A stretch of 64,000 nucleotides of DNA, taken from the IMG/VR virus record IMGVR_UViG_3300011008_002750, positions 56,855 through 120,854 of that record; one strand, given 5' to 3'. The notes under the pieces are model-generated. The model worked only from the letters and a program-made list of their open reading frames with translations. It made no database searches and was not told the DNA's origin. This DNA comes from a virus (lineage: Duplodnaviria; Caudoviricetes). A program made the position numbers and the translations under genes. Below, in pieces: positions 45,824 to 63,546 of this stretch (the first letter of the stretch is position 1; every line of letters starts with the position of its first letter).

Positions 45824-45848
45824 CAACAAATAAGATCTTTGAAATAAC

Positions 45849-45997
45849 GCGTTCGTAGCTCAGTCGGTTTTAGAGCATCTGACTTTCTAGTGATGAGAAC
45901 ACTAAAAAATCTCAGAGTTCATTATGGATGTATGTAAGTTCGATTCTTACATGAACTCCTAATCAGAGGGTCGTGGATTCGAGTTCCACCGGACGCA
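45849..45997 (+). tRNA. tRNA-Lys(TTT) with a 73-nt anticodon intron (45887-45959)
   Basis: Removing the insert restores tctga-cttttaa-tcaga and a canonical cloverleaf. Confidence 0.82.
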
Positions 45998-46011
45998 CAA
46001 AATATAAAATA

Positions 46012-46084
46012 GTCCCTTAGCTCAGTTGGTTAGAGTGCTTCCCTTACATGGAAAAAGTCGTAGATTCGAATTCTACAGGGACTA
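46012..46084 (+). tRNA. tRNA-Val(TAC)
   Basis: Cloverleaf; loop cttacat. Confidence 0.88.
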
Positions 46085-46122
46085 CAAATAAAAGCGAACA
46101 TTGAAATATTGATTTAATATAT

Positions 46123-46195
46123 GGACCAGTAGCTCAAATAGTAGAGCACATCCCTGAAGAGGATGGTGTAGGCGGGGCAGTACCGTCCTGGTTCG
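46123..46195 (+). tRNA. tRNA-Phe(GAA)
   Basis: catcc-ctgaaga-ggatg; variant T-loop ggcagta. Confidence 0.8.
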
Positions 46196-46275
46196 CAATT
46201 TAAAATTAAAGCGAACATACCATTTTTACCATAATTCCATAAATAAATATAATATAAAAAATAAGTATTATTAAA

Positions 46276-47217
46276 ATGGAAAATTTTAAATGTATTTGTG
46301 GTAAAGAATTTAATAATAAATTATCATTAGGTGGGCATAAAACATCTTGTAAAATATATTAGGAAGAAAAACAAAAATAGTTAAGTATTTTATAGGAAAA
46401 TGAAATTAATTATTAGTATATATGTAATTGCGGTAAACGATTTAAAACATAGAGTAGTTTAAATTCACATGCAAGATGGTGTGAACAATATTAGAAAAAA
46501 GATTTTTCATCAAAATATTTTAATAAAGAATTAAAAATTTTTAGATGTGAATGTGGTTTCGAAACAAATAAAGGTAATTCGATTAATGGTCATTTTTCAC
46601 GATGTAATATACATAGAGCAGCTATTGGTAAAGAATCGGCACCAATATATAAAAATTTAAAAATTAGTTAGTATAATTTTAAAAATCTTGATAAAGAGCA
46701 ATTATTAAAAATTTGTTATAAAGGTATTGAAAGCCAACGAAAAATGTATAAAACTGGAGAATTGGTTGGTTGGTGTAAAGGATTAACAGCTGAAACAGAT
46801 GAAAGAATTGCTAAAATAGTTCAAACTCAAAAAAGAAATGGTATAACTGGAGGTTATAGAGAAAATTCAGGAATATGCAAACATGGAAAATATAATGGAA
46901 TTCATTGCGATAGCACTTGGGAATTAGCTTATATTTTATATTGTAATGATAATAATATTCCAATAAAAAGATGTGATAAAGTATTTGATTATTATGATAA
47001 TGAAGGAAATAAACATCGATATTATCCAGATTTTATAATAAATGAAAATGAAATTATAGAAATTAAAGGTAGAATTACTGACTAGTGGAAATTAAAGCTT
47101 CCGATAGTTGAAAGAGAACATATAAAAGTTTTATATAAAGAAGATATGAAAGATATTTTAAATTATTGTTATGAAAAATATGGTAATGATTTAACATATC
47201 TTTATGATAAAAAATAA
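46276..47217 (+). CDS. Zn-finger + TnsA-like PD-(D/E)XK endonuclease in the tRNA cluster, 313 aa (TAG=Gln)
   Basis: Three CxCG..F...SL..H...C repeats; CDSTWE, RYYPDF, IEIKG. Confidence 0.82.
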
Positions 47218-47220
47218 TAT

Positions 47221-47306
47221 GACCGTATGTCCGAGTGTTCGAAGGTATGGCACTGCAAATGCCATTGGAGAAATCCGCATCGGGAGTTAGAATCTCTCTA
47301 CGGTCA
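47221..47306 (+). tRNA. tRNA-Cys(GCA) with a long variable arm
   Basis: tggca-ctgcaaa-tgcca; acceptor gaccgta/tacggtc. Confidence 0.75.
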
Positions 47307-47320
47307 CATATTAAATTATT

Positions 47321-47404
47321 GGAGATACCAACTGTCGAGGAGACGGGACCGCTTGCTAAGCGGATCGCACCTTCGGGTGTCCGGGTCGGAACCGGGGATC
47401 TCCG
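47321..47404 (+). tRNA. tRNA-Ser(GCT)
   Basis: ccgc-ttgctaa-gcgg, long variable arm, G73. Confidence 0.75.
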
Positions 47405-47416
47405 CAAAATAAATAC

Positions 47417-47497
47417 ACCCCAGTAGGCGAATAGGTATAGCCACATGCCTAAGGCGCATGGTTTAATTACGCGAGGGTTCGAGTCCCTCTTGGGGTA
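47417..47497 (+). tRNA. tRNA-Leu(AAG)
   Basis: catgc-ctaaggc-gcatg; type II body, A73. Confidence 0.8.
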
Positions 47498-47581
47498 CGA
47501 AAATAGTATTTAAGAGAGTAAAAATTTGAAACTTTGCTCTCTTTTTTCATATAATAAATAACAAAATTGTATATATAGACA

Positions 47582-48466
47582 ATGAATAAAAAGAATTTAT
47601 ACAATAAAATAATGAAATCGGTTTCAAAAGAAGTTAAAAAAACTTTAAATGAAGGTTTACCATTAGAACATTATAATGATGATTATGATGAAATTAATTA
47701 TATATTTGATTTAGATGAATTGCTAGATGATGAAAAAGCATTAAAATATTATGATAAATTTCCATTAAGATTTCTTAGTGCTAAGGTATTTGGTGGTCCA
47801 TTTATGCTTAATGAAGGAAAAATTGAATTACTAGAAAAAACTCCATCAAGAACGTATTCTATTGAAGAAGTTACAAAAGTTGGGAGATCATTATTAGGAT
47901 TAGAACCCGGCTGGATTAAAACACTAATTGCTGCAAATAAAATAGAAACATGTGTTTTAATATTAGATAAATTTGATAATGTTAATTTTATTATTGAAGG
48001 AATGAAAGCATTTGGCTGGACATTTTCATATGATGAAACCACAATTATGGATCAACATGTATTCAAATCATTGCATTTTGATCCAATGTTTCAAGATGTA
48101 GTAAATGAAGAAATTAAAAAATGCAGTTTATTGAAACACTGGACGCCATTTTATAATTTTAACAGTATTATGCAAAATGGATTGATACCGAAATCTAATA
48201 ATTTTATATTTTCATATCCACCTAAAATTCATTTAATTAAAGGAACTGCAGATAATTATGAAATAATGAATATTGGTGAGCAATTATGTCTTGCAAATAA
48301 AGACCCTCGAAATAATAGACATTATGTTTTGTTAAACATTAATGCAAAAGACTTATTAGATAAAATTGATTTCTTTTATGATCCTCGATATGAATGGGGA
48401 TATTATACAAAGCAGCCTATAGACAAACAATATATAACTAAAAATATGAATTATCATTTTGAATAA
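47582..48466 (+). CDS. Hypothetical protein with a possible Tpt1/KptA-like (ART-fold) C-terminus
   Basis: LKHWTP....SI...GLIPK...KIHL...VLLNI pattern; N-terminus MNKKNLYNKIMKSVSKEVKKTLNE. Confidence 0.6.
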   Translation: MNKKNLYNKIMKSVSKEVKKTLNEGLPLEHYNDDYDEINYIFDLDELLDDEKALKYYDKFPLRFLSAKVFGGPFMLNEGKIELLEKTPSRTYSIEEVTKVGRSLLGLEPGWIKTLIAANKIETCVLILDKFDNVNFIIEGMKAFGWTFSYDETTIMDQHVFKSLHFDPMFQDVVNEEIKKCSLLKHWTPFYNFNSIMQNGLIPKSNNFIFSYPPKIHLIKGTADNYEIMNIGEQLCLANKDPRNNRHYVLLNINAKDLLDKIDFFYDPRYEWGYYTKQPIDKQYITKNMNYHFE

Positions 48467-48485
48467 TAGAGGCTAAAAAATAAAG

Positions 48486-48525
48486 CTTCTATTTTTTATT
48501 TTGAAATATTTTTATTAATTTTGCA
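48486..48525 (+). promoter_or_regulatory. Promoter copy 6
   Basis: Same motif and spacing. Confidence 0.8.
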
Positions 48526-48548
48526 TTGTAATTAAAAATAATATAGTT

Positions 48549-48767
48549 ATGAGAATCTACACAGTTTCAAACGAACAAGGCTATCATGAAGAATTTTATA
48601 GTCTTCCAGCAGCTAAAAAGGCAATGAAAGAACACAATGCCAAAGGTTTTATTACTGCAGTTAGAAGCAATGGTGATTGGGAACCTATGGGAGAAATAAA
48701 ACTCAAAAGAAACAATGCATCAATGCTTGCAGGAGCAACAAAACAAACAATAAATAATTATAATTAA
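48549..48767 (+). CDS. Hypothetical protein
   Basis: 72-aa ORF after the promoter. Confidence 0.7.
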   Translation: MRIYTVSNEQGYHEEFYSLPAAKKAMKEHNAKGFITAVRSNGDWEPMGEIKLKRNNASMLAGATKQTINNYN

Positions 48768-48778
48768 AAATACTACAA

Positions 48779-49018
48779 TTGACAACAGAAGAAAGACTTG
48801 CTGCACGAGAGCAGCGTCGTAAAGAAGATCAACAATTTCGTGAAAATCTTATTGAAGAGATTGCTAATGAATATGATTTTGGTCGTGCAATAGCTAAAGC
48901 ATGTGTTGATAAAGGTTGGGAAGATGGACATGCATATGGTTATAGTGAAGTTAGAACACAATCTGAAATTGCAGCTGATTTCGCAGAGAAAATTCTTGCA
49001 ATTATTGGACCGGCATAA
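48779..49018 (+). CDS. Hypothetical protein (TTG start)
   Basis: WEDGHAYGYSEV motif. Confidence 0.7.
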   Translation: MTTEERLAAREQRRKEDQQFRENLIEEIANEYDFGRAIAKACVDKGWEDGHAYGYSEVRTQSEIAADFAEKILAIIGPA

Positions 49019-49037
49019 TTATGAAACTAAAAATAAT

Positions 49038-49703
49038 ATGAGTGAAGTTAGTCGATATTTCGAGAAACAAATTTTGCAGTTTGATTCATCTAAGGTGAAG
49101 ATATTCTTTACCTCAGATACTCACTGGAACCATACCAACATAATTAAATACTGTAAGCGCCCATTTGCTAATGTAGAAGAAATGGACGAGGTGTTAATTG
49201 AGAATTGGAATGCTGTTATTGGTTCAGATGATATTGTTTTTCATCTTGGTGATTTTGCATGGGGTGGTTCTGAAGTTTGGAATAATGTTCTTGATAGATT
49301 GAACGGACATATTTATTTGATTCTTGGAAATCATGATATGAAAAATTTGCGTCAAGAATATATTTCAAAATTTGAAGCAGTTGCATTTCAGATGTATATT
49401 TATATTGACGGACGCGCAGTTTATTTGAATCATTACCCATTCCTTTGTTATGGTGGATCATATCGCGGTGAGCAAGCTGTATGGCAATTATTTGGGCATG
49501 TACATTCTCAGCCACAACATTATAATATTGACGATATAAATGACCTAGAAGTGAAAGAAATTCTCGGTAAAGACACTTATAGACTTCAGTATTTGATGCC
49601 CACTCAGTATGATGTAGGTGTAGATAATAATAATTATAAACCTATTAGTTGGGAAGAAGTTAAAGAGAAAATTCAAAAACAAATTGAAGCAAGTGAAGAT
49701 TAA
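49038..49703 (+). CDS. Calcineurin-like metallophosphoesterase
   Basis: TSDTHW.H, HLGDF, LGNHD, NHYP, GHVH, DVGVD. Confidence 0.9.
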   Translation: MSEVSRYFEKQILQFDSSKVKIFFTSDTHWNHTNIIKYCKRPFANVEEMDEVLIENWNAVIGSDDIVFHLGDFAWGGSEVWNNVLDRLNGHIYLILGNHDMKNLRQEYISKFEAVAFQMYIYIDGRAVYLNHYPFLCYGGSYRGEQAVWQLFGHVHSQPQHYNIDDINDLEVKEILGKDTYRLQYLMPTQYDVGVDNNNYKPISWEEVKEKIQKQIEASED

Positions 49704-49743
49704 CTTCTATTTTTTAGTTTAAAGATAAAATATTATTTTTGCA
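49704..49743 (+). promoter_or_regulatory. Promoter copy 7
   Basis: Same motif and spacing. Confidence 0.8.
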
Positions 49744-49771
49744 TCATAATAATAAAAAATAAATACTAATT

Positions 49772-50464
49772 ATGAAAATAAAAAATCAAACTTTGATGTA
49801 TTTATATCGTCAAGAAAAATGTCTTGGCCGTGATAATGATAGTTGCTGTAATGTAGACGAAAATCATAAAATTCGCTATATTCTTTCACCATATGAGTTA
49901 AAACCAGATTATGGAAAGATGTATGCAGATATGAAAGAAAACAAAGAGATGACATATGATGATTGGTTTTCAAAAAATTGGTATCCGGTTTTTTCCAACT
50001 TTAATGCAAAAGATTGCAAAATAATCGAAGAAACATATTGTGATGGTTGGAACGGTTTATTTAATATGTTACCCGTATTAAATAATGATATGTGCGCAGA
50101 AGTTGTATTCACGACTGAATATGCGGCTGATATAGCAGATGATTATGTTGAAGAGATTCTTAAAAAACAAAAAGATGATATTAGAGATTTGTTAGATAAA
50201 ATTAATCATACTGCAACATATGAATGTTATGTTTTGAAACGTAGATTAGATGATGTTATGCTTGGATGGGAAAATGATATACCATTTTATGAGTTGGAGG
50301 ATGGTTATGTAAAATGGGATGTACATGGTAGAGCAAATGTAACACTGTTATTTGATAAAAATCTTTGTGATTTATTTGATGATAATACAGAATATGATGA
50401 AAATGGTGAATATGTTCCATATAAAGCAACGGTAACAATTTCAAGTAATATTAAAAGATTATGA
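49772..50464 (+). CDS. Hypothetical protein
   Basis: 230-aa ORF. Confidence 0.72.
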   Translation: MKIKNQTLMYLYRQEKCLGRDNDSCCNVDENHKIRYILSPYELKPDYGKMYADMKENKEMTYDDWFSKNWYPVFSNFNAKDCKIIEETYCDGWNGLFNMLPVLNNDMCAEVVFTTEYAADIADDYVEEILKKQKDDIRDLLDKINHTATYECYVLKRRLDDVMLGWENDIPFYELEDGYVKWDVHGRANVTLLFDKNLCDLFDDNTEYDENGEYVPYKATVTISSNIKRL

Positions 50465-51249
50465 AAAAGCGAAGTAAAGATAGTCTCGGTGATCGCATGA
50501 AGCGATATGAGGCAGTAAGTAAAACTTCATTAGTTCAAAGAATGCCAGTTATTCTTCGTCTTGATGGATGTCATTTTCATACATTTACTAAAGGATTTGC
50601 AAAACCTTTTGATGATGTAATGATTAAATCTATGCAAGATACAATGAAATATTTGTGTGAAAATATTCAAGGTTGTGTATTTGGATATACGCAATCGGAT
50701 GAAATCACCCTTGTATTGGTTGATTATAAAAATTTGAATTCAAGTCAATGGTTTGATAATGAGGTTCAAAAGATGTGTTCAGTTGCAGCATCAATGGCAA
50801 GTATGCATTTTAACAAATGTTTTGCATATAATGCAATAAATGCAGGAAATGAAGAAGAATTGTTTAAAAAACACTGGGATGCATTTACTAAACATGGAGC
50901 ATATTTTGATTGCCGTGCATTTAATGTTCCTAAAGAGGATGTTTGCAACTGTATACTTTGGCGGCAGCAAGACGCGACAAGAAATTCAATTCAATCACTG
51001 GCACAATCTCAATTTTCTCAAAAACAAATGCACGGTTTAAGTTGTAATATGTTGCAAGATAAATTGATGGTTGAAAAAGGAATTAACTGGAATGATCTAG
51101 ATACTGTTAAAAAACGTGGTTCTGCTTGTATTAAAAATTATTATACAGAAAATGTAAAAACACGTTCTAAATGGGTTATTGATTATAATATGCCTATTTT
51201 GTCACAAGACAGAAATTATGTTGAACAATTTGTAATATTGTCAGATTGA
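50461..51249 (+). CDS. thg1: tRNA(His) guanylyltransferase / Thg1-like 3'-5' polymerase
   Basis: RMKRYE, RLDG.HFH.FT, YTQSDEI, FDCR, WRQQDA.RNSI, GINWN, KRG. Confidence 0.93.
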   Translation: MKKRSKDSLGDRMKRYEAVSKTSLVQRMPVILRLDGCHFHTFTKGFAKPFDDVMIKSMQDTMKYLCENIQGCVFGYTQSDEITLVLVDYKNLNSSQWFDNEVQKMCSVAASMASMHFNKCFAYNAINAGNEEELFKKHWDAFTKHGAYFDCRAFNVPKEDVCNCILWRQQDATRNSIQSLAQSQFSQKQMHGLSCNMLQDKLMVEKGINWNDLDTVKKRGSACIKNYYTENVKTRSKWVIDYNMPILSQDRNYVEQFVILSD

Positions 51250-51364
51250 GGTAATTTTTTAAATATAACTAAATAATTTTTCACAGAAAACAATTTGTTG
51301 TTTTTGGGTTTTTATTTTGGGGTATTGAAATATAGTTTAATAAACATTAAAAATATTAAAAATT

Positions 51365-51592
51365 ATGAAAAAAATTATGGCATTTGTAGTAAGAAATGAA
51401 GATGGAATGCTAAATTTAGTTATGGGTGCTACACCATATAAACTTAATATCCACGGAAATGGATATTGGGCAATTCCTGATAATCAAATCGAAAATTGTT
51501 ATATTGAAGAAATTCAAAATGATAAATTTCCTCAAGTCAAATGGGAAGATGCAGAACCAACTAAAGTTGAATTAACAATTAAAATAAAATAA
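51365..51592 (+). CDS. Hypothetical protein
   Basis: FPQVKWED.EP.KVEL motif. Confidence 0.7.
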   Translation: MKKIMAFVVRNEDGMLNLVMGATPYKLNIHGNGYWAIPDNQIENCYIEEIQNDKFPQVKWEDAEPTKVELTIKIK

Positions 51593-51594
51593 TT

Positions 51595-51873
51595 ATGGAA
51601 AAGAAACTTTTACATTCTGATGAAGAGTATTTTGCTTATTGTGAGCAAGAACAAATTGGTTATATATCTAGACAATATGGGTCTCAATGTTGCGATATTG
51701 AGAATGGCGCTGAATGTCATAATGGTGCTACACTTTATAAAGGAACTAGTTATGAAGAATACTTAAAATTTGATAGTAAACCGTCTCATTATCCATGCAT
51801 ATTAGTGTATTATGATGGACTTGATGATGTAATTCGTGGTATGTTTATTTATCCTGAAGATTTTGAAGATTAA
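51595..51873 (+). CDS. Hypothetical protein
   Basis: 92-aa ORF. Confidence 0.7.
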   Translation: MEKKLLHSDEEYFAYCEQEQIGYISRQYGSQCCDIENGAECHNGATLYKGTSYEEYLKFDSKPSHYPCILVYYDGLDDVIRGMFIYPEDFED

Positions 51874-51875
51874 TT

Positions 51876-52070
51876 ATGACGCAATTTGATAAAGGCTGGT
51901 GGAATTGTTTTAATTCATTTGCCAATAATACAATAAATGACAATGATTCTATTTGTATGGAGGTTCTAAATGGAGCCGGTGTAACAAAGGATGAGGTTGA
52001 AGAAGTATTGCGTAATGGTGATTTATATGGAAATGCATTAAATATTATATATGAATATATAAGAAATTAA
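51876..52070 (+). CDS. Hypothetical protein
   Basis: 64-aa ORF in the operon. Confidence 0.68.
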   Translation: MTQFDKGWWNCFNSFANNTINDNDSICMEVLNGAGVTKDEVEEVLRNGDLYGNALNIIYEYIRN

Positions 52071-52072
52071 TC

Positions 52073-52873
52073 ATGAAACGTTTAGTTATAGGTGACATAT
52101 ATGGACATTGGGATGGATTCAAAAAGATTTATGATCTTGAAAATCCTGATGAGGTTATAATGCTTGGAGATTATTTTGATAATTTTCATGGTTCTGATGA
52201 CAGTATATATGAATGTTATCGGGATATTCTTGATTTGCGTGGTGAACATCTTGCTTTGAAAAAAGGAGATTTTAAGATGTTAATTGGCAATCATGATTTT
52301 CATTATAATCACTGGTTTGAGAAATGTTCAGGGTATCGTTCATCTATGGCACGTAAGAATGCACTTATTTTGAATAATTATTCTCAACATTTACAATTTG
52401 TTTATGTCGATGAAATAAACAATACTATATATTCTCATGCAGGTGTAACAAATACTTGGTTAAAAGAGAATTTAGGAGACAAATATGATAAAGATTCATA
52501 TTTGTTTATTAATGAAATGAATCACCAAGCATTCAAATTTACTTATAAAGGCGGGGGCGATATGTATGGAAACACAATATATGCAAGTCCTATTTGGTGC
52601 CGGTCTCGTTCTTTGAATGAAGATAGTTTAATTAATAAAGATGGTGAGAAGATGGTTCAGATAGTTGGGCATACTCATAGTCAGACACCAATTTGTTATG
52701 ATTTTAATGGTTATGAAATGCCTACACAAGATGAAGATGGAATCAAATTAGTAAATGAACATTTTGAAGATGTTAAAATATATATAATAGATACGATGCC
52801 TAATTATTACATGGTTGAAGAATTAGATGATGATAGGAAATTAGTAAAACGTGAAATTAAACAATTAAAATAA
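52073..52873 (+). CDS. Calcineurin-like metallophosphoesterase (second)
   Basis: IGDIYG, LGDYFD, IGNHD, SHAG, VGHTH. Confidence 0.88.
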   Translation: MKRLVIGDIYGHWDGFKKIYDLENPDEVIMLGDYFDNFHGSDDSIYECYRDILDLRGEHLALKKGDFKMLIGNHDFHYNHWFEKCSGYRSSMARKNALILNNYSQHLQFVYVDEINNTIYSHAGVTNTWLKENLGDKYDKDSYLFINEMNHQAFKFTYKGGGDMYGNTIYASPIWCRSRSLNEDSLINKDGEKMVQIVGHTHSQTPICYDFNGYEMPTQDEDGIKLVNEHFEDVKIYIIDTMPNYYMVEELDDDRKLVKREIKQLK

Positions 52874-52912
52874 TTTTCATTATAATTTATAAAACTTTAA
52901 TTTTTTACAATT

Positions 52913-53536: not shown

Positions 53537-53613
53537 ATAAAATAAATAATTAGAAGAAAATAAACTTTTTTCTAAAAATAAATAAAATAAATAATAAAAT
53601 TAAAAAATAATAA

Positions 53614-53797
53614 ATGCAAAATTATAGAGAACATAGTATGATGATTAATACAATTGGTGAACAACGTCCATCAACAGAACAACCATCTGTACTTTATAAT
53701 GATGCCAATTATTAGCTGAAGAGGTAAACCCTAATATCAGGAAACACAATATATAAAAGAAATTCCTTGGGTTTACAATAAACTCAAGGAATTTTTA
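53614..53797 (+). promoter_or_regulatory. Leader uORF (TAG four codons before TAA) plus terminator before tRNA/ncRNA region 2
   Basis: uORF 53614-53727; hairpin aattccttgggttta/taaactcaaggaatt followed by a T tract. Confidence 0.5.
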
Positions 53798-53821
53798 ATT
53801 AAAAAATAAAACAAAATTTAA

Positions 53822-54059
53822 CTTCTATTTTTTAGTTTAAGAAAAAAGTTGTAATTTTGCATTACCAAATTAAAAAAGAGTGTTCTTTAACAAATTGAAA
53901 TAAAGGTTTATTATTCCACTTGAGTTCTGGGAACTTATATGATAAGCGCACAATAAAATCATATTTGGGTGGCAGGTTCGAATCCTGAGTAAACCTCAAA
54001 AAAATAAAGCAAAATTTAACTTCTATTTTTTAGTTTAAGAAAAAAGTTGTAATTTTGCA
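53822..54059 (+). promoter_or_regulatory. Tandem duplicated promoters (copies 8 and 9) driving the RNA region
   Basis: Identical ~50-bp blocks; motif starts at 53822 and 54020. Confidence 0.8.
53903..53997 (+). ncRNA. Degenerate tRNA-like element
   Basis: aggttta/taaacct terminal stem and caggttcgaatcctg T-arm; no clear anticodon arm. Confidence 0.45.
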
Positions 54060-54386
54060 TCGTCATTCAAAAAAATGACAAAGTGATATTTGAAATTTTT
54101 ATTAACTTTTTTGAAAAAGAAAATAAACTTTTTTGAAAACTGTTATATAAAATAATAAATGATAATTGCAAAGAAATTTGCATGAAACATTTAAATGCGA
54201 TCCTTGACGTATTGAGATTAAAATTAAAGAAAGAAATTATTTTTCTATTTAAAGAAATTTAAATGGAAGTCAAATATATTTCGTATCAGTAATTTCTCCT
54301 GTGAAGGTGTTTATACTGATACAAAAGCCGCAACGCTTTGACACAACAAGCGTCACCCTTAAGGGATTAGGAGTTGAGTCGTAATT

Positions 54387-54501
54387 GGATGCGTGAAGCA
54401 GATGGCATGTGCTACTGGAGAAAATCTAAATCGTTTAAACCTCTAATGAGGGAGATAAGGAGAAGTAACAGGCTATGTAGGTTGGAATCCTACTGCATCC
54501 A
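54387..54501 (+). ncRNA. tRNA-like RNA with an expanded central region
   Basis: ggatgcg/tgcatcc acceptor, gtagg-ttggaat-cctac T-arm; no canonical anticodon loop. Confidence 0.5.
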
Positions 54502-54592
54502 CTTTATCAACATAAAACAGAAACATAGATCGAGGTATTAATTGGGAAAAATGACAAAGATCTAAACAGAAATATATTGTTGATATAAAATT

Positions 54593-54749
54593 GTAACCGT
54601 AGTCAAGTGGCCAACGACAGCAGACTGTTTAGTGAATAAAACACTAAAAAATTGAAGATGATATAGTAATGGCTGTAAATAAGTTCGAATCTTATATATC
54701 ATCCTAATCTGCCCCGAAAGGTTCGCAGGTTCGAATCCTGCCGGTTGCG
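54593..54749 (+). tRNA. tRNA-Asn(GTT) with a 76-nt anticodon intron (54629-54704) and a long variable arm
   Basis: Removing the insert gives gcaga-ctgttaa-tctgc; G73 favours Asn over Tyr. Confidence 0.72.
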
Positions 54750-54750
54750 C

Positions 54751-54876
54751 GAGGAAGAATGGTGGTTCAAATCCATCACATATTAGCAGAGTTCAAAACT
54801 CATTAAACTTGGTTAATTGCTAATATTGTAGTTTAGAATTGGTTGTAAAACATCCGTAGTAGGTCCTGGTTTCTTT
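54751..54876 (+). ncRNA. Permuted tRNA-like RNA (T-arm precedes D-arm)
   Basis: ggtgg-ttcaaat-ccatc, then acatattagca/tgctaatattgt stem, then gttt-agaattggttgta-aaac. Confidence 0.45.
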
Positions 54877-55210
54877 AGTGGGGATAAAATTCCATGGCGC
54901 AAACAAAAAGACGAAACTCCACACATTTTCCAGGTAACGCTGGTGGTACATCTATAAGCTTTGAATTGAAAACGCTGAAGCACCAATGTAGGTTGGTAGA
55001 ACCGAGGCCGTAACTCGGATAGATGGCAAAATAGTTAAAAGAAAACAATTTAGAAAGGTCGAGGAATCTCTATTTGTACAAATTGGCATTACGTCACCAG
55101 ACAATATTTGTTGAGGCTCTGAATAGGTCGCTCCTTGGAAGTAGGGGAATTGAGAATACAAATAGCGGGAGAAAGGTAGACTCGTGGGCTGGTTCGCTCT
55201 CCCAATTTTA

Positions 55211-56300
55211 TAGTTGAAGGAAAACAACTTGCCAAATCCTTATTAATTATTTATAAAAACCGCAGGCTCTGGTTGTTGATGATGTAAAATCTAATAAGTC
55301 TGACCTATGGCGCTAATCCTGAAATGATTATTAAGTCAGAGAGTAATCTAAAGTTAGTTTTAAGGTGACTAACATCTTAGTTGAAGGAAAACAACTTAAA
55401 TAAACCTAATTTACTCCTATCGTCTAGTGGTTTAGGACGCTCCCGGGTGGTAACATCAGTTCGAATCTGATTGGGAGTTCTTAGTTGAAGGAAAACAACT
55501 TAAAAAATCTGGCAGAAAACACACAGAGAACTGCATTAGATTAAATTAAATTACTCGTGTTGCGGAGGGAGAAAGCCTCATTAAATAACGAACACTTCAA
55601 AGAGTCTGAGGGCAACCGTGGGCTGTAAGTTTCTTCCTTATAGGGTTCTAGATAATCTATAAGTTTCTTTAACGGGAGCGGAAATAGTTGAAGGAATACA
55701 ACTATAAAAACCATAAGAATCTACCACTTGCACAAGGTAATGAAAAGGAATAGTCGTAATTAATTTAAGAAGTGCGTAAATTAAATTAGGTGGATATATT
55801 TTAACTATAAGAAGGAAAAACTTTATAACCAATTATTAACATACACATAGCGTCGCAACCGCGTCAAGAACGTTAGTTCTGTGTTGAAATAGAGGCATTG
55901 CATGGTAGACAGTAAGTCCTTCGTGTTAATAATTACTATAAGAAGGAGAACTTAATAATCTTCAAAACAACGCCGGTGATTGCTATGATAACCTAGTGGG
56001 TGGTTCCCGCTTCCGGCTCTAATAAGAAGGAAAACTTAAAAACCCAGTTATATGAAGTAGTCAAATTCGTATCGCTTGACCTGAGGTTCTGCCTTGGTAG
56101 TTTAATGAATGATATAAAACATCATATAACCAAAACAATAGTTGAAGGAAAACAACTTAAATAAACCCAGCAACCTTCTATCATTTGATGATACAGTAGG
56201 AGTAATTGTATAGAGTAGTAATAGCACGATGTATCATATGAGAGAGATGGTGCGTGGCTCTCACACTTATAGTTGAAGGAAAACAACTTTAAAAACCCAT
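55211..56300 (+). repeat. Array of 9 hairpin repeats (TAGTTGAAGGAAAACAACT-A-tract-CC and the TAAGAAGGAAAACTT variant) separating unique structured segments
   Basis: Copies start at 55211, 55378, 55482, 55685, 55806, 55937, 56021, 56139 and 56270; an outlying copy at 58377 and a degenerate copy at 55032. Confidence 0.9.
55413..55479 (+). ncRNA. tRNA-Glu-like RNA lacking the anticodon loop
   Basis: actccta/tgggagt acceptor, gtct-agtggttt-aggac D-arm, atcag-ttcgaat-ctgat T-arm; ctccc joins gggtg directly. Confidence 0.7.
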
Positions 56301-56664
56301 TGGCAGTTGAGGGTAATACACTGTACAAAGGACAAGTTGAATGTGAGATGGTCCCAGAAAGTTGACAGACACACAAGACTTTCAAATATACTTATTTTTA
56401 ATTACATAAATTATAGATTGATTGAGTAAAAATTAATCGACTACATTGACGATAGTTTTTCAATAAGGGGGGTAAATTCAAGACAATTTATTTAGGATTG
56501 TCTAAGTAGAATTTATTGCAGTCGGCTGTTGAAAAAACTCGTAGCTTTACCACCGGATTTTTTGTTGTAGAAGACGGGCTTTATAGAATTAGAAAGCGCA
56601 GATTAATTTTTTAAGATTTCTTTTTCAGATTTTCTTTAGCTGATTAAAGTAAAATCTGAAATTT

Positions 56665-56736
56665 GCACCATTAGTATAACGGTTATTATACATGATTTGT
56701 AATCTTGAGATCCTGGTTCGATTCCGGGATGGTGCT
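56665..56736 (+). tRNA. tRNA-Thr(TGT)
   Basis: Loop tttgtaa; cloverleaf. Confidence 0.88.
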
Positions 56737-56952
56737 CAAAATATTTTTCTTCGGGTTTTATATTGTGATTTAAGACGCCATATTGTTAGACGAAACTAAA
56801 ATTATAAAAACTTGGACGTAATAAAAGATTGAACGATAAGCAAAACTTGCCTCAGTGAGTAACCAAATCGAGGAGTAATTAACCACGATTTCTGAGAGCA
56901 CGGATTATTCATACCTGGCCAGGTGGATAATTGAAAGGTTACATTTTTATAT

Positions 56953-57026
56953 TGCCCTGTAGCTCAACTGGCTAGAGCGTCTGATTTTGGTTCAGAAGGT
57001 TGGGGATTCGAACTCCTCCAGGGCAA
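56953..57026 (+). tRNA. tRNA-Gln(TTG)
   Basis: tctga-ttttggt-tcaga; U1 start. Confidence 0.85.
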
Positions 57027-57106
57027 CAAAATTAATTGCATAAAGGAGTTCCTATTTTATTTAATTGCAAATTAAACTTACCATACTTCTCGCGATTAAT
57101 CTAAAT

Positions 57107-57181
57107 TGTCTTGTATATCAGCCTGGTTAGATTGTCATCCTGATAAGATGAAGGTCGTTGGTTCAAATCCAACCAAGACAA
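57107..57181 (+). tRNA. tRNA-Ile(GAT)
   Basis: tcatc-ctgataa-gatga. Confidence 0.88.
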
Positions 57182-57244
57182 CAAAATTGAAAAAATTATT
57201 TTTTAGTTCGAAATAAATATAATATAAAGTAATTCGAACTAATT

Positions 57245-58039
57245 ATGGAAAGCGTTAAAGGAAGTAAAAGAAAATATCATATTTTTTATAAAATAACAAA
57301 TAATATAAATAATCATTTTTATTATGGCGTACATAATACCGATAATATAAATGATAATTATATGGGTTCTGGAAAAAGATTATAGTATGCATATAAAAAA
57401 TATGGTATGGAAAATTTTACAAAGGAGAATTTAAAATTTTTTGATACTGCTAAAGAGGCATTTGAATACGAAGCTGATTATATAACAGAAGAATTAATTA
57501 AAGACCCTAATTGTTATAATATTGAAGGTGGAGGTAAAGGTTGGAATACTATTAATTAGGTATTAGTAAAAGATAAAGATGGAAATACATTTTTAATATC
57601 TAAAAATGATTAGCGATATTTAAATAAAGAATTAGTTAGTGCTTATAAGGGATATATATGTTGTAGAAAAAAAGGTGAAACTGAATTTTGTTGGATACCA
57701 AAAGAATTATACAATAAAAATGAATATGAAACCACATCATCGAATAATGTACCTGTAAAAGATAAATCTGGAAAATTTTATTTAGTATCTAAAGATGATC
57801 CACGATATTTAAATGGTGAATTAGTATCAATTTGGAAAGGTAAACATCATAAAGAAGAATCTAAACAAAAAATGCATAATACATTTTTAAAAATACATCA
57901 TTAGCAAGGCGAAAAAAATTCTCAATTTGGTACATGTTGGATTCATAATGATGAAGAATCTATTAAAATAAAGAAAGAACAATTAGAAGAATATATTTCT
58001 AATGGTTGGGTAAAAGGAAGAAAAATGTTTAAAAAATAA
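57245..58039 (+). CDS. GIY-YIG (Seg-like) homing endonuclease, 264 aa (TAG=Gln)
   Basis: IFYKITNNINNHFYYGVH...YMGSG...KKYG.ENF.KE...YNIEGGG; C-terminal GTCWIHN...GWVKGR. Confidence 0.88.
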
Positions 58040-58043
58040 TTAT

Positions 58044-58117
58044 AGGGTAGTAGTTCAATTGGTTAGAATGCTAGTTTTGGGAACTAGTGGTTGGGGAATC
58101 GTGCTCCCCCTACCCTA
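58044..58117 (+). tRNA. tRNA-Pro(TGG)
   Basis: ctagt-tttggga-actag. Confidence 0.82.
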
Positions 58118-58176
58118 CGAATTAAATAATTAAAAAACAATTAGTTATAAAATTTACATAAACTAACAGATTAAAT

Positions 58177-58291
58177 AAATCATGAGATACCGGTTCGAAT
58201 CCACATCGCGCAGAAGCATTTAGTCAGACTTCCAAGTGATAGTTGGCCTGAAATTGGTCTTAGAACATAAATGGACTAAAACACATGATTT
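58177..58291 (+). ncRNA. Possible permuted tRNA-like RNA
   Basis: aaatcatg/catgattt closing stem; GGTTCGAATCC first, ggcc-tgaaatt-ggtc later. Confidence 0.4.
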
Positions 58292-58554
58292 TAATTTTTA
58301 TTTCCAAAGTACACGGAGATAGTAATGGAGACGATGCGAGTGGTACTCCATGTTAAAAACAAAAGTCACTTACAAATAGTTGAAGGAAAACAACTATAAA
58401 AACCAGTTAATTAACTTTAATCTTGAAGGTGGTAGAGTAACCTTACAAAGCATATCTAGTAGACTCGGTTGAAGTATGCCAGGAGAGATGATAGAAGCCT
58501 AGGCTCTCAAATTTTTTGAAACTTTTTAATAATATAAGATATAATAATTAAAAT

Positions 58555-58625
58555 GGCGGGTTCGTATATCGGTAGTACTCAAGATTTTCATTCTTGCAAG
58601 AGGGGTCCGACTCCCCTACCCGCTA
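58555..58625 (+). tRNA. tRNA-Glu(TTC)
   Basis: caaga-ttttcat-tcttg. Confidence 0.85.
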
Positions 58626-58767
58626 CAACTAATTGATAATCAATCAGTTATAAATTTACAATTCAACGATTACTATATGTAAGTTCGGGATTTGGATGGG
58701 CACTACCAAATGGACGGAGAACCGCGTGCATTCGAGATTGGTGACAATACGGAGAGACGTATAATAA

Positions 58768-58841
58768 TGGAATGTAACTCAGTCGGTCAGAGTTCGAAGC
58801 TTATACCTTCGCGGTCGGGGGTTCAAGTCCCTCCATTCCAA
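58768..58841 (+). tRNA. tRNA-Ile(TAT)
   Basis: cgaag-cttatac-cttcg; canonical D- and T-arms. Confidence 0.85.
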
Positions 58842-58952
58842 CGTGAAAGGCTGTAGTGTTGGTTTTATTAGTTTTTTGTCAAAATGCAGTAACCTCCATA
58901 TCGTGCGAACAAATAATATGGTCAGGACAAAACATGAAAACTAATTTTATAT

Positions 58953-59033
58953 TGCGTGGTGTCAGAAGCTGGTATCTGGGTGGGCTCATAACCCACTGCG
59001 TAAGCCTCGGAGGTTCGAGTCCTCCCCACGCCA
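58953..59033 (+). tRNA. tRNA-Met(CAT), initiator-like
   Basis: gtggg-ctcataa-cccac (three G-C pairs), unpaired first position, extended variable loop. Confidence 0.8.
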
Positions 59034-59125
59034 CAAATTAGCTTAAAAATGGATAGTTCAATTTTTATTTCCACAACTTAAATAAATATAATATATTAAT
59101 ATATAAAAATAATTTATATTTAATT

Positions 59126-60022
59126 ATGGGAAATTGTAAATATTGTAATAAAGAATTTAAAAATGTTAAAAACCACGAAAAACATTGTAAATTAAATCCA
59201 GATTATGATAAAATTGATCATTCATATTTATCTAGAAATGGTGCTAATACATATCGTTATTTAGGTAAATTACGTGCTATAAATACACAAAATAACATAC
59301 ATGAACATCAAATTATTTGTGCAAAATGCGGAAAAGAATTTTCAGTAATAGTAAGCGACAATAATTTCAATAAAGGAAAATATAAACATTTTTGTTCACG
59401 AAGTTGTGCAAATTCTCATGTTGTATCAGATTAGACAAAAGAAAAAATAAGTAAAGGAGTTATACATAAAATATACGGGTCAAAAGAAAAACAAGAGGAA
59501 CATAAATTAAAAACGTGTGCTTGTTGTGGAAAATAGTATAGACCAACGTCATTAAGTAAATTTTGTAGTACAGACTGTAAAAATATTAGTATACATAATA
59601 AAATTATATCAGATGAAACTAGACAAAAATTATCAGAAGCTGGTAAGCATTCTGCAAAAGTTCAATCAGAAATACGACGTTCAAAAAATGAAATGAAATT
59701 TTGTACATTATGCGAGCAATATTTTAATAATGTAGAACATAATAAATCAATATTTAATGGTTGGGATGCAGATGTAATAATACATGATATAAAATATGCA
59801 ATTTTATGGAATGGCCCATGGCATTATAAAAAACTTAATAAAAAACATTCTGTAGAACAAGTACAAAATAGAGATAATATTAAAATTAATGAAATAATAA
59901 AATATGGTTACACGCCATATATTATTAAAGATTTAGGTAAATATAAAGAATCATTTGTACAAGAAAAATTTGATGAATTTTTAGAATTTTTAAAGAAAAA
60001 AGAGATAGAGGCCCATGTCTGA
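59126..60022 (+). CDS. Multi-Zn-finger Vsr-like endonuclease, 298 aa (TAG=Gln)
   Basis: CKYC, CAKCG, FCSRSCANSH; RRSKNE...GWDADVIIHDIKYAILWNGPWHY. Confidence 0.8.
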
Positions 60023-60170
60023 AACGACTTGTAGGTTCGAATCCTACTCATGGTGTTTCACTTTGAATGTTATATTTAATAAATTTATAAATGTTGCAAC
60101 ACTTTCTAATTAATAACATTCTTTAAGAAGTGGATCCTACTGTGATGGCGAAACAGGTAAACGCGTGGGT
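60011..60170 (+). ncRNA. Circularly permuted tRNA-Leu-like RNA
   Basis: The 3' half (variable arm, T-arm, tcatggt) precedes the 5' half (actgtga, D-arm, gtgggt); the halves are complementary in both acceptor and anticodon stems. Confidence 0.68.
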
Positions 60171-60376
60171 AAGATTGTTGTTGGCTATAACAACATTAAA
60201 TAAATATAGTACCTTTAACTAATATATTAGGTCAGACGCTAAATATATTCCTTAAATGAAAAGCAAAGTATTGAGTAATAGAATACATGAGGGTTCGGAC
60301 CCTGGAGTAGAAATCGACCAAAAAATGCATATAGTTATATGGGTGCAACTCCCATAATAATATTTTAGTTAATAAT

Positions 60377-60445
60377 GACATCATCGTATAGTGGTTATTA
60401 TTGGGGACTGTCTCTCCTCGGACCAGAGTTCGAATCTCTTCACTC
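60377..60445 (+). pseudogene. tRNA-Asp(GTC) lacking its 3' acceptor strand
   Basis: D-, anticodon (ctgtctc) and T-arms are present, but gacatca has no partner after the T-arm. Confidence 0.6.
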
Positions 60446-60662
60446 GCTCCAGGATATAGCACAGATACGGGGTTGATGAAAACAATCATTAGTAGTTGCG
60501 GGACGCCAATATGAAACGGTTTGTTGGATTCTAAAACATGAAAGTTATGGAAGCAGAGATGGTTGCAAACATTGAGGTGGAAATGCAGATGTATGTAAAT
60601 AGGGCGCTCTCAGTGGTGGGAGAGGTCGGAGAACAACCCGTAAAAACTTCTATCCTGACCAT

Positions 60663-60734
60663 GCCCTTGTACGCTAACGGACAAACGAGGTGGCTACGAA
60701 CCACCCATTCCCCGTTCGAATCGGGGCGGGGGTA
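60663..60734 (+). tRNA. tRNA-Arg(ACG)
   Basis: ggtgg-ctacgaa-ccacc. Confidence 0.85.
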
Positions 60735-60797
60735 CTAATAAATAAACAATTTCAATTTAATGTAATAAAATAATTGAAATAATAAATTATATTAAAA

Positions 60798-61328
60798 ATG
60801 AAAATTGATTCATTAGAGAGCATTTGGGATAACTTAGGATATGTTATTCAAAAATATGGTGGTTTTAAGAAAACACAATTTCACCCAAGAAAGTTAATTT
60901 ATAATTGTGCACCAAAAAGAATGAAAGATGGATCTGTGAAAAATACTTTTATTGAAGTTGGATATCTTTATTTAACAAGTGCAGTTAAAGATGATTCTCA
61001 ATGTAATATTTGGTTTGATTGTACTGACCATATTAATTATGATAAAGAACATAAAATTATATTTCCGACAATGTCTGAACAGTTTTGGGATAAAATTGTT
61101 AGAAAGCATAATTCAAATATTGCGCAAATTTATAATAATTCAACAAAAGAAGATTTTAATATAACATGGAGTACTATAAAAGGACAAGCATTATTTACGA
61201 CAAGAAAAGAAGCCGAGGATTATATTAAGCAATGTGAAAATGGTAAAGTTGAGCTTTCTGAATTCTTTTTAAAGGTTGAAAAAGTTATAACAAACCCAAC
61301 ACCAGAAGATTATGAAAATATAAAATAA
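60798..61328 (+). CDS. Hypothetical protein
   Basis: 176-aa ORF. Confidence 0.72.
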   Translation: MKIDSLESIWDNLGYVIQKYGGFKKTQFHPRKLIYNCAPKRMKDGSVKNTFIEVGYLYLTSAVKDDSQCNIWFDCTDHINYDKEHKIIFPTMSEQFWDKIVRKHNSNIAQIYNNSTKEDFNITWSTIKGQALFTTRKEAEDYIKQCENGKVELSEFFLKVEKVITNPTPEDYENIK

Positions 61329-61350
61329 AAAATAAAAACTAATTAGAAAC

Positions 61351-61815
61351 ATGAGAAAATTTTTATTTATTGCACTTGCAATTATTAGCAGTATGGTATT
61401 CACTTCATGTGGAACTCAATTTGGTTTGGTTTATGGCGTTCAGCTTACAGGTGATGGAGATGGACAATTTGAAGTAACTTTTCCACAAGGTTCTTATGAA
61501 ATGAATGGTAAAGCAGCTCTTGCATTGAATGTAGGTGATTCTGTATTGTTTAATGATACAACTGCTAAGGTTGCATACAAGAATGATGTTCTTCTTCGTG
61601 GTAATAAGGATGAAATTGAAGCAATGCGTCGTGTAAATGATTCTATTGCAAATCAATTTAATACTTTTGACGGTGAAGGAACATATGATATTTGGCTTAA
61701 AGGTTTTGTCAAAGAAATTGGATCTGGTTTGGTATTCTCAGTTGACAGACATTTTACAAATCGTGTAAAAGGAGTTCGTAAGAACGATAATGATCTTTAT
61801 CCATTTATTCAATGA
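61351..61815 (+). CDS. Putative lipoprotein
   Basis: Signal peptide with an FTSC lipobox. Confidence 0.78.
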   Translation: MRKFLFIALAIISSMVFTSCGTQFGLVYGVQLTGDGDGQFEVTFPQGSYEMNGKAALALNVGDSVLFNDTTAKVAYKNDVLLRGNKDEIEAMRRVNDSIANQFNTFDGEGTYDIWLKGFVKEIGSGLVFSVDRHFTNRVKGVRKNDNDLYPFIQ

Positions 61816-61858
61816 TTTTGAAATTGGTTATATCATTTAAGGTAAACCAATTTGAAAT

Positions 61859-62011
61859 GCCCCGGTAACTCAGTTGGACTTAGAGTAACAGCCTTCCTAG
61901 TGAATAAAACACTAAAAAATTGAAGCTTATAGATTTAAGAAATTTTTAAAGGAGCAAAACCTTTTATAAGCACTAAGCTGTGGGTCCTTGGTTCGAATCC
62001 AAGTCGGGGTA
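61859..62011 (+). tRNA. tRNA-Arg(TCT) with a 77-nt anticodon intron (61897-61973)
   Basis: Removing the insert gives acagc-cttctaa-gctgt; A20 in the D-loop. Confidence 0.8.
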
Positions 62012-62197
62012 CAATAACATTGCTTCATTGCAATCGGTTTATCACTTGACGAAACAAAGTGACGTTCACCAGCTGATTCGACAAATATAGTTGGCTAAAA
62101 GAAAACCGAGCACAGGTGTCCGACATTAGTGACGGTTAAGTTAAGCTGCAGATTACTTAGCAGTATCTAATGAGAAGATTCGTTAATTCTTCACCGT

Positions 62198-62228
62198 TAT
62201 GGGAACTTTAATTAGTTCCCATTTTTTA
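62198..62228 (+). terminator. Intrinsic terminator
   Basis: atgggaact/agttcccat followed by a T tract. Confidence 0.72.
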
Positions 62229-62309
62229 TGGCGAGGTAGCTCAGTTGGTTAGAGCGTAAAAGTTGTTAGATCAATTTATTTTTATGCTACATAAATAAAT
62301 ATTAAAATT

Positions 62310-63320
62310 ATGTTAAATTTTATGTATAAGTGCAAATATTGTGGAAAAGAATATGAAAAAGCAACTCAAGTAGCTGGACATACTGGAAGATGTAAAAATA
62401 ATCCAAATAGAATTAAAAATATTGAAAAAACAAACAAATATTTATAGAATGCTAATAAATAGCGGTTAGAAAATATAAAAGCTAATCCAAAATATCAAAA
62501 GAAAGAATATACATTTAAATGCAAAAAATGTGGAAAAATATATACATTAATATTAAATGAAAATCAATATAATAATGGTAAATATTCAAAATATTGTTCT
62601 AAATCATGTGCAAATAGTCATATAAATGAAAATAATGAAGGAGTTACAAAAAATTTAAAAATTTTTAAAAAATGTAACATTTGTGGAAAAGATACGTTAG
62701 TTTCTGCACAATTATCAAATAATAAAGTAAAATGTGATACATGTAAGCAAAATCAATATAATATTTTACCAACAGAATCATATAAAATTTGTAATATATG
62801 TAATAAACATTATAAATATATTTTAGGAATTAATACTAAAAAATTTTGTTGTAAAGAATGTCAAATGGAATATCATGAAAATAAATTAAAATATTTATCA
62901 ATAGAAACAAGAAATACTTTTTCAGAAACAGCTAGAAAAAATATAGCAAAAATGGAAAATATTAGACGTAGTAAAAATGAAATATATTTTTGTGAATTAT
63001 GCGAAAAATATTTTAAAAATGTTGAACATAATTTACCTTTATTTAATGGTTGGGATGCTGATATTATTATACATGATATAAAATATGCTATTATGTGGAA
63101 TGGAAAATGGCATTATGAAGAAATGAATTTTAAAGGTAGTCATTAGTCTTTAGCACAAATTCAAAATAGGGATAAAATAAAAGAAAAAGAAATTTTAAAT
63201 TATGGATATAAATTATACATTATAAAAGATATGGGCGGATATAATAAGAAATTTGTTGAAAAAGAATTTAACAATTTTATTATTTTTTTACATAATAACA
63301 ATATTATGAAAATGGAATAA
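62310..63320 (+). CDS. Multi-Zn-finger Vsr-like endonuclease (paralog of 59126..60022), 336 aa (TAG=Gln)
   Basis: Multiple CxxC; RRSKNE...GWDADIIIHDIKYAIMWNGKWHY. Confidence 0.8.
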
Positions 63321-63389
63321 AAATAAGTTTAAATATAAAATTAATAATTATAAATGCTAATTTAAATTTATTTTAAATATAAATAACTA

Positions 63390-63535
63390 GGCAGCTCAAT
63401 TGGGTCGAACAATAGTCTTTATAGTGAACAAAACGCACTAAAAATTGATGTTTATAGATTTATGAAATTTTAAAGGAGCAAAATCTTCTATATACATTAA
63501 GACACTGGTTGTGAGTTCAATCCTCACAACTGCCA
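63390..63535 (+). pseudogene. Degenerate tRNA carrying a fourth copy of the anticodon intron (about 63421-63497)
   Basis: Insert closely similar to the Arg intron; T-arm and 3' acceptor retained; D-arm and anticodon stem damaged. Confidence 0.65.
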
Positions 63536-63546
63536 CAATTGTTAAA

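Follow-up and report, generated by a model that had tools for sequence, protein, structure and literature searches.

Bacteria and their viruses are, to our knowledge, thought to remove introns from tRNAs only by means of self-splicing ribozymes. The closest described relatives of the elements treated here are the 'enigmatic introns' that Devoto et al. (2019; PMC6784885, Fig. 4 and Table S6) reported in the tRNAs Phe, Gly, Thr and 'Tyr' of Lak megaphages, with no match in Rfam; they noted that the Thr intron may encode a tRNA and, by comparing alleles that have or lack it, shifted its position by one base. A 2026 survey said of the tRNA introns in recoded jumbo phages that they 'could encode another tRNA' (PMC13037316), and in the literature we found no published mechanism for Lak-type tRNA introns. 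Here we analyse four related inserts in tRNA genes of the last 64 kb (the window, that is, the whole stretch of DNA analysed) of the 120,854-bp IMG/VR record IMGVR_UViG_3300011008_002750 (hereafter G000), together with related IMG/VR contigs of up to 413 kb. Judged from sequence, the inserts belong to the family reported in 2019; new here are a rule for the 3' boundary, a C74 signature and covariation of the helices. The explanation that as a whole serves best, held with a confidence just short of even, is that they are genuine RNA-level introns of the Lak-megaphage family, most likely removed by proteins; we infer splicing itself, the acting enzymes and the chemistry of the ends from DNA.

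Compared by eye, the introns of Table S6 follow the same plan as the inserts of the window: an N-T-A start, a 4–5 bp hairpin whose loop is rich in A, a linker with ...TTAAA at its end, then the acceptor-like stem, the T-arm and a final N-C. The view of an earlier note on this DNA, that the architecture had not been described, must therefore be given up. Both sets are anticodon-loop inserts (~70–170 nucleotides (nt) in the Lak phages) whose removal restores a 7-nt loop, and both are patchy in occurrence and near-identical where they recur. The host tRNAs differ, being Lys, Asn and Arg-UCU here and Phe, Gly, Thr and 'Tyr' in Lak, as does the hairpin, which is TAGTG/CACTA here and of other sequence in the published Lak introns. 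The 2019 paper gives no architecture, boundary rule or mechanism.

The phage itself appears to be a Lak-like giant gut phage, a label that rests on recoding, GC content and the tRNA cluster. Like the hosts of the Lak introns (TAG-recoded, ~26–27% GC, with a large tRNA cluster), G000 is TAG-recoded, AT-rich (27.5% GC) and rich in tRNA genes, with 17 on the contig. Open reading frames (ORFs) of G000, whose completeness is 24% by CheckV, stay open only with TAG as a sense codon, and TAG makes up 9 per 1000 codons in the long ones. A suppressor-type tRNA with anticodon CTA lies outside the window (G000:C1:14467-14541) and fits the reading of TAG as an amino acid. A search of a GenBank phage collection found no relative of the region and gave only generic matches to tRNA halves.

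Results

Four inserts with a common plan

The motif TAGTG-N5-9-CACTAAAAA occurs at four sites in the window (45888, 54630, 61898 and 63422) and in none of 100 shuffles. Motif count, sequence reading and folding bear out the four related inserts of 73–77 nt that the earlier note had reported, the first three in intact tRNA genes and the last in a decayed one. Their parts are as follows, P1 being the 5' hairpin.

45849–45998, plus strand: tRNA-Lys(UUU) gene with intron; exon 1 45849–45886, exon 2 45960–45998, ending A73-C74
45887–45959, plus strand: Lys intron, 73 nt, position 35/36; 1 nt, then P1 45888–45904 and A-rich linker 45905–45914
45915–45959, plus strand: 3' parts of the Lys intron; acceptor-like stem 45915–45922 with 45951–45958, T-arm mimic 45934–45950, last base C 45959
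54593–54750, plus strand: tRNA-Asn(GUU) gene with intron; exon 1 54593–54628, exon 2 54705–54750
54629–54704, plus strand: Asn intron, 76 nt, position 35/36 or 36/37; P1 54630–54646, linker 54647–54656
54657–54704, plus strand: 3' parts of the Asn intron; acceptor-like stem 54657–54664 with 54696–54703, T-arm mimic 54679–54695, last base C 54704
61859–62012, plus strand: tRNA-Arg(UCU) gene with intron; exon 1 61859–61896, exon 2 61974–62012
61897–61973, plus strand: Arg intron, 77 nt, position 35/36 or 34/35; P1 61898–61914, linker 61915–61924
61925–61973, plus strand: 3' parts of the Arg intron; 7-bp stem 61925–61931 with 61965–61971, distal 5-bp hairpin 61948–61964, tail A-C 61972–61973
63390–63536, plus strand: decayed tRNA gene; insert 63421–63497 (77 nt), P1 63422–63440

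Each insert folds into a 5-bp hairpin with a purine-rich loop of 7–9 nt (P1), an A-rich linker, a stem of 7–8 bp and a 5-bp stem closed by a 7-nt loop. Hairpin, A-tract, stems and 7-nt loop are present in all four copies, as the earlier note had described; the T-loop-like sequence that it counted as part of the plan is confined to Lys (TTCGATT) and Asn (TTCGAAT), the distal loop reading AGCAAAA in Arg and in the fourth copy. The single C that the note had seen between the stem and exon 2 in the Lys and Asn copies is the last intron base in both. The inserts contain no ORF.

The Rfam tRNA model spans the inserts in the three intact genes with weak matches (45851–45957, 54593–54749 and 61859–62011), and after removal of the inserts in silico ARAGORN calls canonical tRNA-Lys(ttt), Asn(gtt) and Arg(tct). 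The expected spliced junctions, marked by a slash, are CTGACTTT/TAATCAG for Lys, AGACTGT/TAATCTG for Asn and AGCCTTC/TAAGCTG for Arg. An insertion between anticodon positions 35 and 36 agrees with the note, with 36/37 as the alternative for Asn and 34/35 for Arg. Its description of the fourth host as decayed also stands: only 2–3 anticodon-loop bases are left, the outer acceptor stem has a C-A mismatch, and the gene escapes ARAGORN, Rfam and a covariance model (R1) built from the Lys and Asn copies. The insert of this gene has 2 extra nt in the P1 loop, a mismatch in the inner stem and T in place of C as its last base.

The two commonest codons of G000 are AAA (82 per 1000) and AAT (79 per 1000), and among its Arg codons AGA is the main one. 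A gene for Lys, Asn or Arg-UCU that lacks an intron was not found on the 121-kb contig, so that the interrupted copies are the sole ones detected there. Because the interrupted genes serve the commonest codons and have no intronless counterparts on the contig, splicing is to be expected.

A match to a known Rfam intron family, one of the outcomes that by the earlier note would refute its reading, did not turn up: at E values up to 1, Rfam returned only tRNA matches at the insert sites and no intron or ribozyme family. This result bears on the idea of a small RNA that cleaves or splices itself, either a new ribozyme or a miniature group I-like intron, which we hold to be highly improbable. The anticodon-loop location, shared with bacterial group I tRNA introns, and the conserved structure speak for it, yet the inserts, at 73–77 nt, are too small to self-splice, end in C rather than the terminal G of group I introns and share no sequence core across types, the helices varying freely in sequence and only H-U-A, the A-tract and the terminal C being kept.

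Intronless alleles and exact boundaries

Two natural pairs of alleles place insertions exactly. The related 184-kb phage G002 has an Asn gene without insert (L141:16682-16763) that consists of exon 1 and exon 2 with the loop CTGTTAA; over 82 nt it is 97.6% identical to the interrupted gene, from which it differs by two compensatory changes in the T-stem. The Asn intron is accordingly 54629–54704 or that span moved rightwards by one base, since intron and exon 2 both begin with T. The second pair is a tRNA-Met(CAT) gene with a 107-nt insert in G002 and its intronless orthologue in G001, the closest large relative of G000, with the loop CTCAT/AA.

Among related loci we found no intronless orthologue of the Lys or Arg gene, and the intron is present in 4/4 Lys orthologues. 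The best intronless homologue of the spliced Lys sequence is itself a Lys(ttt) gene, with 86% identity over 50 nt across the junction, and the Arg boundary is ambiguous by one C. Read by eye, the copies show no consistent target-site duplication, terminal inverted repeat, pairing of the intron as a splint with the exon junction, or hammerhead-type NUH site.

Eleven intron types in related phages

Scans with tightened patterns found two true loci in IMG/VR and another seven in metagenomes; a loose pattern, TAGTG-N-CACTAAAAAWT, gave at least 117 loci in IMG/VR, with one genuine among the matches listed. Through the scans the Lys intron was located in two more contigs; the Asn intron is in four others and the Arg intron in one. 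Near-identical copies of the Asn intron lie in L125/L152/L173, L131 and L136, where the flanks are unrelated, and the orthologue of the Arg intron is at L138:875-951. A different Arg(UCU) gene carries a 111-nt version (L133:6056-6166), whose inner tRNA-like element has the size of a cloverleaf.

When introns were allowed, ARAGORN turned up further inserts in Thr, Pro, Glu, Met, Ala, Met and Phe genes, in which the plan is unchanged and the hairpin sequences are different; it was applied in this way to 30 loci around the Thg1-like gene described below and to the tRNA clusters of four relatives. In this setting the program misplaces boundaries and isotypes; it calls Lys and Asn 'Arg-cct', for example. 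The window and related contigs together hold 11 distinct intron types. Their content is patchy, with four introns in the window, at least five each in G003 and contig L131, and one or two in the larger relatives G001 and G002. A descriptor that combined hairpin, minihelix and flanking anticodon stem gave 248 matches, mostly chance or ordinary tRNAs in AT-rich DNA, and was dropped.

A more degenerate form was also seen in a Glu-like tRNA with a 71–72 nt insert in G001 (L177:1534-1677) and G003 (L173:4303-4446). There a weak 5' hairpin is followed by a plain 10-bp hairpin instead of the minihelix, and the end reads ...CAC; in the G003 gene the predicted loop no longer yields a Glu anticodon.

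A fixed distance from the inner T-loop to the 3' boundary

The 3' boundary falls 14 nt past the inner T-loop, after N73-C74, in 11/11 intron types, and base 74 is C in all of them. The 14 nt are counted as 5 nt of T-stem, 7 nt of acceptor strand, N73 and N74, and the 5' boundary was set by demanding seven loop bases. ARAGORN accepted all 11 spliced products obtained under this rule as canonical tRNAs, and for 8 of the 11 types the predicted anticodon is also that of the closest intronless tRNA in related loci. The four published Lak A1 and A2 introns, as read from Table S6, obey the same rule. Although the Lys and Asn stems appear to be 8–9 bp long, the extra pairs involve N73 and the distance from the T-loop is still 14.

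ARAGORN calls the inner tRNA itself in two long introns, and its end coincides with the last intron base. The position of the insert in the host loop varies between genes (35/36 or 36/37); it is thus the inner tRNA, not the outer one, that the 3' boundary follows. Across types the inner module ranges from an ARAGORN-callable tRNA through a minihelix to a plain hairpin, and the part that survives is the part read by tRNA end-processing enzymes. The rule places splice sites and names isotypes independently of the motif. Under it the Lak 'Tyr-GTA' gene is probably Asn-GTT, in keeping with its class I shape and with the lack of another Asn gene on the lists of A1, A2 and C1.

The same ending recurs in ordinary tRNA genes. 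Among intronless genes of G000 and its relatives, C74 is encoded in 128/131 (14/14 in G000) and C75 in only 11/131; the interrupted genes of the window have the C74 end as well (45996–45998, 54748–54750 and 62010–62012). The tRNA genes of this phage group thus encode N73-C74 but no CCA, in a genome of ~27% GC. In Bacteroidetes, the phylum of the Lak phage hosts, tRNA genes are likewise mostly without a templated CCA (PMC5143459).

In all 11 types the insert has the shape of an RNase Z-type substrate, a 7-bp stem stacked on a 5-bp stem that is closed by a 7-nt loop; N-C comes next, and the bases after it are not CA. Precursors that lack CCA are matured by an RNase Z-type endonuclease together with a CCA-adding enzyme. 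The earlier note had proposed that the mimic directs a tRNA 3'-processing nuclease to the 3' splice site, with the cut just after the discriminator base. The first part gains from the 14-nt rule in 11/11 types and from the common N73-C74 end. The second does not survive: a splice cut after N73 would give GCT rather than GTT in Asn and CAC rather than CAT in Met, which contradicts the intronless alleles. The rule supports, without proving it, a 3' cut by a tRNA 3'-end nuclease. If such a nuclease cuts here, the cut would fall after C74, and would probably do so on all tRNAs of these phages.

The 5' end

P1 begins 1–3 nt, usually 1 nt, after the start of the intron. Over 15 types (the 11 and the four published ones) the first intron base is never G, the second is T in 13/15 and the third is A in 14/15. 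The consensus is H-U-A, then P1, and always then A and an A-rich tract. The earlier note's idea that the small hairpin marks the 5' site gained no support from these sequences.

Sequence reading and folds revealed no bulge-helix-bulge, splint, repeat or ribozyme-like core at the insert ends. An intron of the archaeal or eukaryal type, a bulge-helix-bulge cut by an EndA-like enzyme and joined by RtcB, is exceedingly improbable on this evidence. RtcB is encoded by some large relatives (G005 and G006), which would suit it, but the bases next to the splice sites are not complementary and leave no room for two 3-nt bulges with a 4-bp helix between them; the intron's 3' end is tied up in pairing within the acceptor-like stem, and its 5' end lies directly against P1. 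The tRNA-intron endonuclease domain (PF01974) was not found in G000, G001, G002, G003 or G005, with archaeal controls positive, and RtcB was not found in the closest relatives, G001 and G002.

Covariation of the intron helices

The alignment was made with the Lys/Asn covariance model because MAFFT set the Arg-type copies one column out of register; the model recovers the Arg, Met and Thr types and not Glu, Pro, Ala, Phe or the decayed copy. In this model-fitted alignment (11 sequences, six intron types) 98.9% of cells were paired, versus 76% in shuffles and 24–45% with slid partners. Both sides had changed in 15 of the 18 pairs, and all three helices covary. One T-stem pair runs U-A, U-G, C-G through the Lys orthologues L091, L137 and L172. 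For 9 of the 11 types P1 exceeds at least 95% of shuffles in stability, though its sequence differs by type. Covariation and the compensatory Lys series sustain the earlier note's statement that the stems differ in sequence but keep pairing, and they support selection on RNA structure, short of proof.

These data also bear on a reading in which the inserts are selfish DNA that is never removed from RNA, the interrupted genes being dead or non-decoding and the phage using host tRNAs. The copy at 63390–63536 is clearly decayed, presence and absence vary among relatives, and HNH-type endonuclease genes lie among the tRNA genes, all of which would fit such elements. However, the exons are intact, with compensatory changes between intron-bearing and intronless alleles; removal restores a perfect 7-nt loop for every insertion; the intron helices covary, indicating selection on RNA; no terminal inverted repeats or target-site duplications were read by eye; and the interrupted genes serve the commonest codons. 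We regard this reading as improbable.

Enzymes and the proposed route of removal

Ligase genes occur in relatives of G000. An Rnl2-type ligase domain (PF09414) is encoded in G001 (G001:83352-83843), ~5 kb past its tRNA cluster; G005 has two Rnl2-type domains and RtcB, and G006 has RtcB. The search for ligases that the earlier note had proposed thus gave candidates in relatives and none in G000 itself. The annotation of Lak A1 includes rnlB and cca, the gene of the CCA-adding enzyme. RNase Z was not found in the phage records searched.

Among ways in which proteins might remove the introns, we put forward as the most likely, though with less than even confidence, a third, protein-only route of tRNA splicing in a bacterial cell. 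An RNase Z-type endonuclease of the Bacteroidota host would bind the inner minihelix and cut after N73-C74, the junction of intron and exon 2 and the same cut as for every tRNA of these phages, leaving a 5'-phosphate on exon 2. A second, separate nuclease, guided by the hairpin, would cut 1–3 nt upstream of P1, before H-U-A, and leave a 3'-OH. The nicked anticodon loop could then be sealed by an ATP-dependent Rnl2-type phage RNA ligase, which would join 3'-OH and 5'-phosphate without end healing.

Several points weigh against this proposal. Since classical RNase Z cuts after N73, the proposal has to assume in addition that the cut falls after C74, a base that might instead be conserved for the binding of RNase P. 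The distal loop of the Arg-type intron is not T-loop-like. No nuclease can be assigned to the 5' site, for which an RNase E/G-type single-strand endonuclease or a phage enzyme are guesses only; RNase P cannot make this cut, because its expected site, the 5' end of the inner minihelix, lies ~28 nt downstream of the 5' splice site, and if it acted there, hairpin and linker would stay on exon 1 as a tail for which these data offer no explanation. No RNA ligase (PF09414), RtcB or CCA-adding enzyme domain (PF01743) was found in G000, which is 24% complete and stops 380 bp beyond its last tRNA. Finally, the covariation comes from a model-fitted alignment of introns many of which are mutually related.

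In a different arrangement a dedicated phage splicing endonuclease would recognize P1 and the minihelix and make both cuts, the tRNA shape being a binding platform or a relic and not an RNase Z substrate. In its favour, the conserved 5' end (H-U-A, a hairpin with an A-rich loop, A) is not a signal read by any known tRNA enzyme, many ORFs of the tRNA cluster are without family assignment, and the Arg-type intron keeps its boundaries without a T-loop sequence. We nevertheless consider a dedicated enzyme unlikely, though not remotely so: no candidate gene was identified, no tRNA-intron endonuclease domain was found in the five records searched, and the N73-C74 end shared with ordinary tRNA genes would be left unexplained.

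Neighbouring genes and other features of the cluster

The tRNA cluster also contains the following protein-coding genes.

46276–47217, 57245–58039, 58856–60022 and 62310–63320, plus strand: free-standing HNH/homing-endonuclease-like ORFs between tRNA genes, with 3–8 in-frame TAG each
48798–49703 and 52073–52873, plus strand: two calcineurin-like metallophosphoesterase genes, either side of the Thg1-like gene
50461–51249, plus strand: Thg1-like tRNA-His guanylyltransferase/3'-5' polymerase, inside the tRNA cluster (Pfam 4e-32, PHROG 4e-93)

The Thg1-like gene is kept beside tRNA clusters in 30 IMG/VR relatives. The metallophosphoesterases could be RNA end-healing enzymes or unrelated. One HNH-like ORF sits between the Arg gene and the decayed tRNA; as a group these ORFs are candidates for the mobility of introns or tRNA genes. 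They probably help the introns to spread between genes, and could do so for these ORF-less elements by cutting intronless alleles.

Some tRNA genes of the cluster are of unusual shape. The tRNA-Trp (45734–45824, 91 nt) and tRNA-Cys (47221–47307, 87 nt) genes have long variable arms, a class II-like form that is odd for these isotypes, and the list of Lak A1 also has a 91-nt Trp gene. The variable region of tRNA-Asn(GUU) is likewise unusually long (12 nt), giving a class II-like shape odd for Asn. A further Rfam tRNA match on the plus strand (46123–46195, 41 bits), missed by ARAGORN, resembles tRNA-Phe(GAA) with an aberrant T-arm; a gene similar to it follows the Lys gene in L091 and L137. Around the Asn gene, ~3 kb (53540–56660) lack any plus-strand ORF of at least 70 amino acids, which brings to mind the large intergenic regions with high expression reported in Lak phages.

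Comparison with known systems

The inserts are far too small for ribozymes and lack the archaeal motif, yet they interrupt tRNAs for the most used codons. The 14-nt/C74 rule turns an 'enigmatic' observation into a specific prediction that can be tested with enzymes. If the proposed route holds, it would amount to a new splicing pathway assembled from housekeeping tRNA enzymes, which could be a control point for the phage's own translation.

Archaeal and eukaryal tRNA introns are likewise short, ORF-less and located in the anticodon loop, and the inserts here are, like them, presumably removed by proteins. Those introns are defined by a bulge-helix-bulge at position 37/38 and depend on EndA/Sen and on RtcB or Trl1, whereas here there is no such motif, the inserts lie at other positions and the 3' site appears to be set by an internal tRNA mimic. 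We know of no EndA/Sen-type splicing endonuclease in bacteria. Group I introns of bacterial and phage tRNAs, such as that of cyanobacterial tRNA-Leu(UAA), are also mobile and patchy inserts of the anticodon loop; they exceed 200 nt, have a catalytic core of P3–P9 and end in G, in contrast to 73–77 nt, no Rfam group I match and a terminal C (T in the decayed copy) in the window.

For the use of an embedded tRNA-like fold the nearest parallels are MALAT1/mascRNA and mitochondrial tRNA punctuation, in which such a fold recruits RNase P or RNase Z to set the ends of neighbouring RNAs. The flanking RNAs are not rejoined in those systems, whereas the cut proposed for the inserts would make up half of a splicing reaction. 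The other half recalls the repair system of phage T4 (Pnkp with Rnl1, and nick sealing by Rnl2), in which a phage ligase reseals a tRNA anticodon loop that a host nuclease has broken to leave cyclic phosphate and 5'-OH ends. In the phages described here the breaks would instead be programmed and the ends probably 3'-OH and 5'-phosphate, and Rnl2-type genes are present in Lak A1, G001 and G005.

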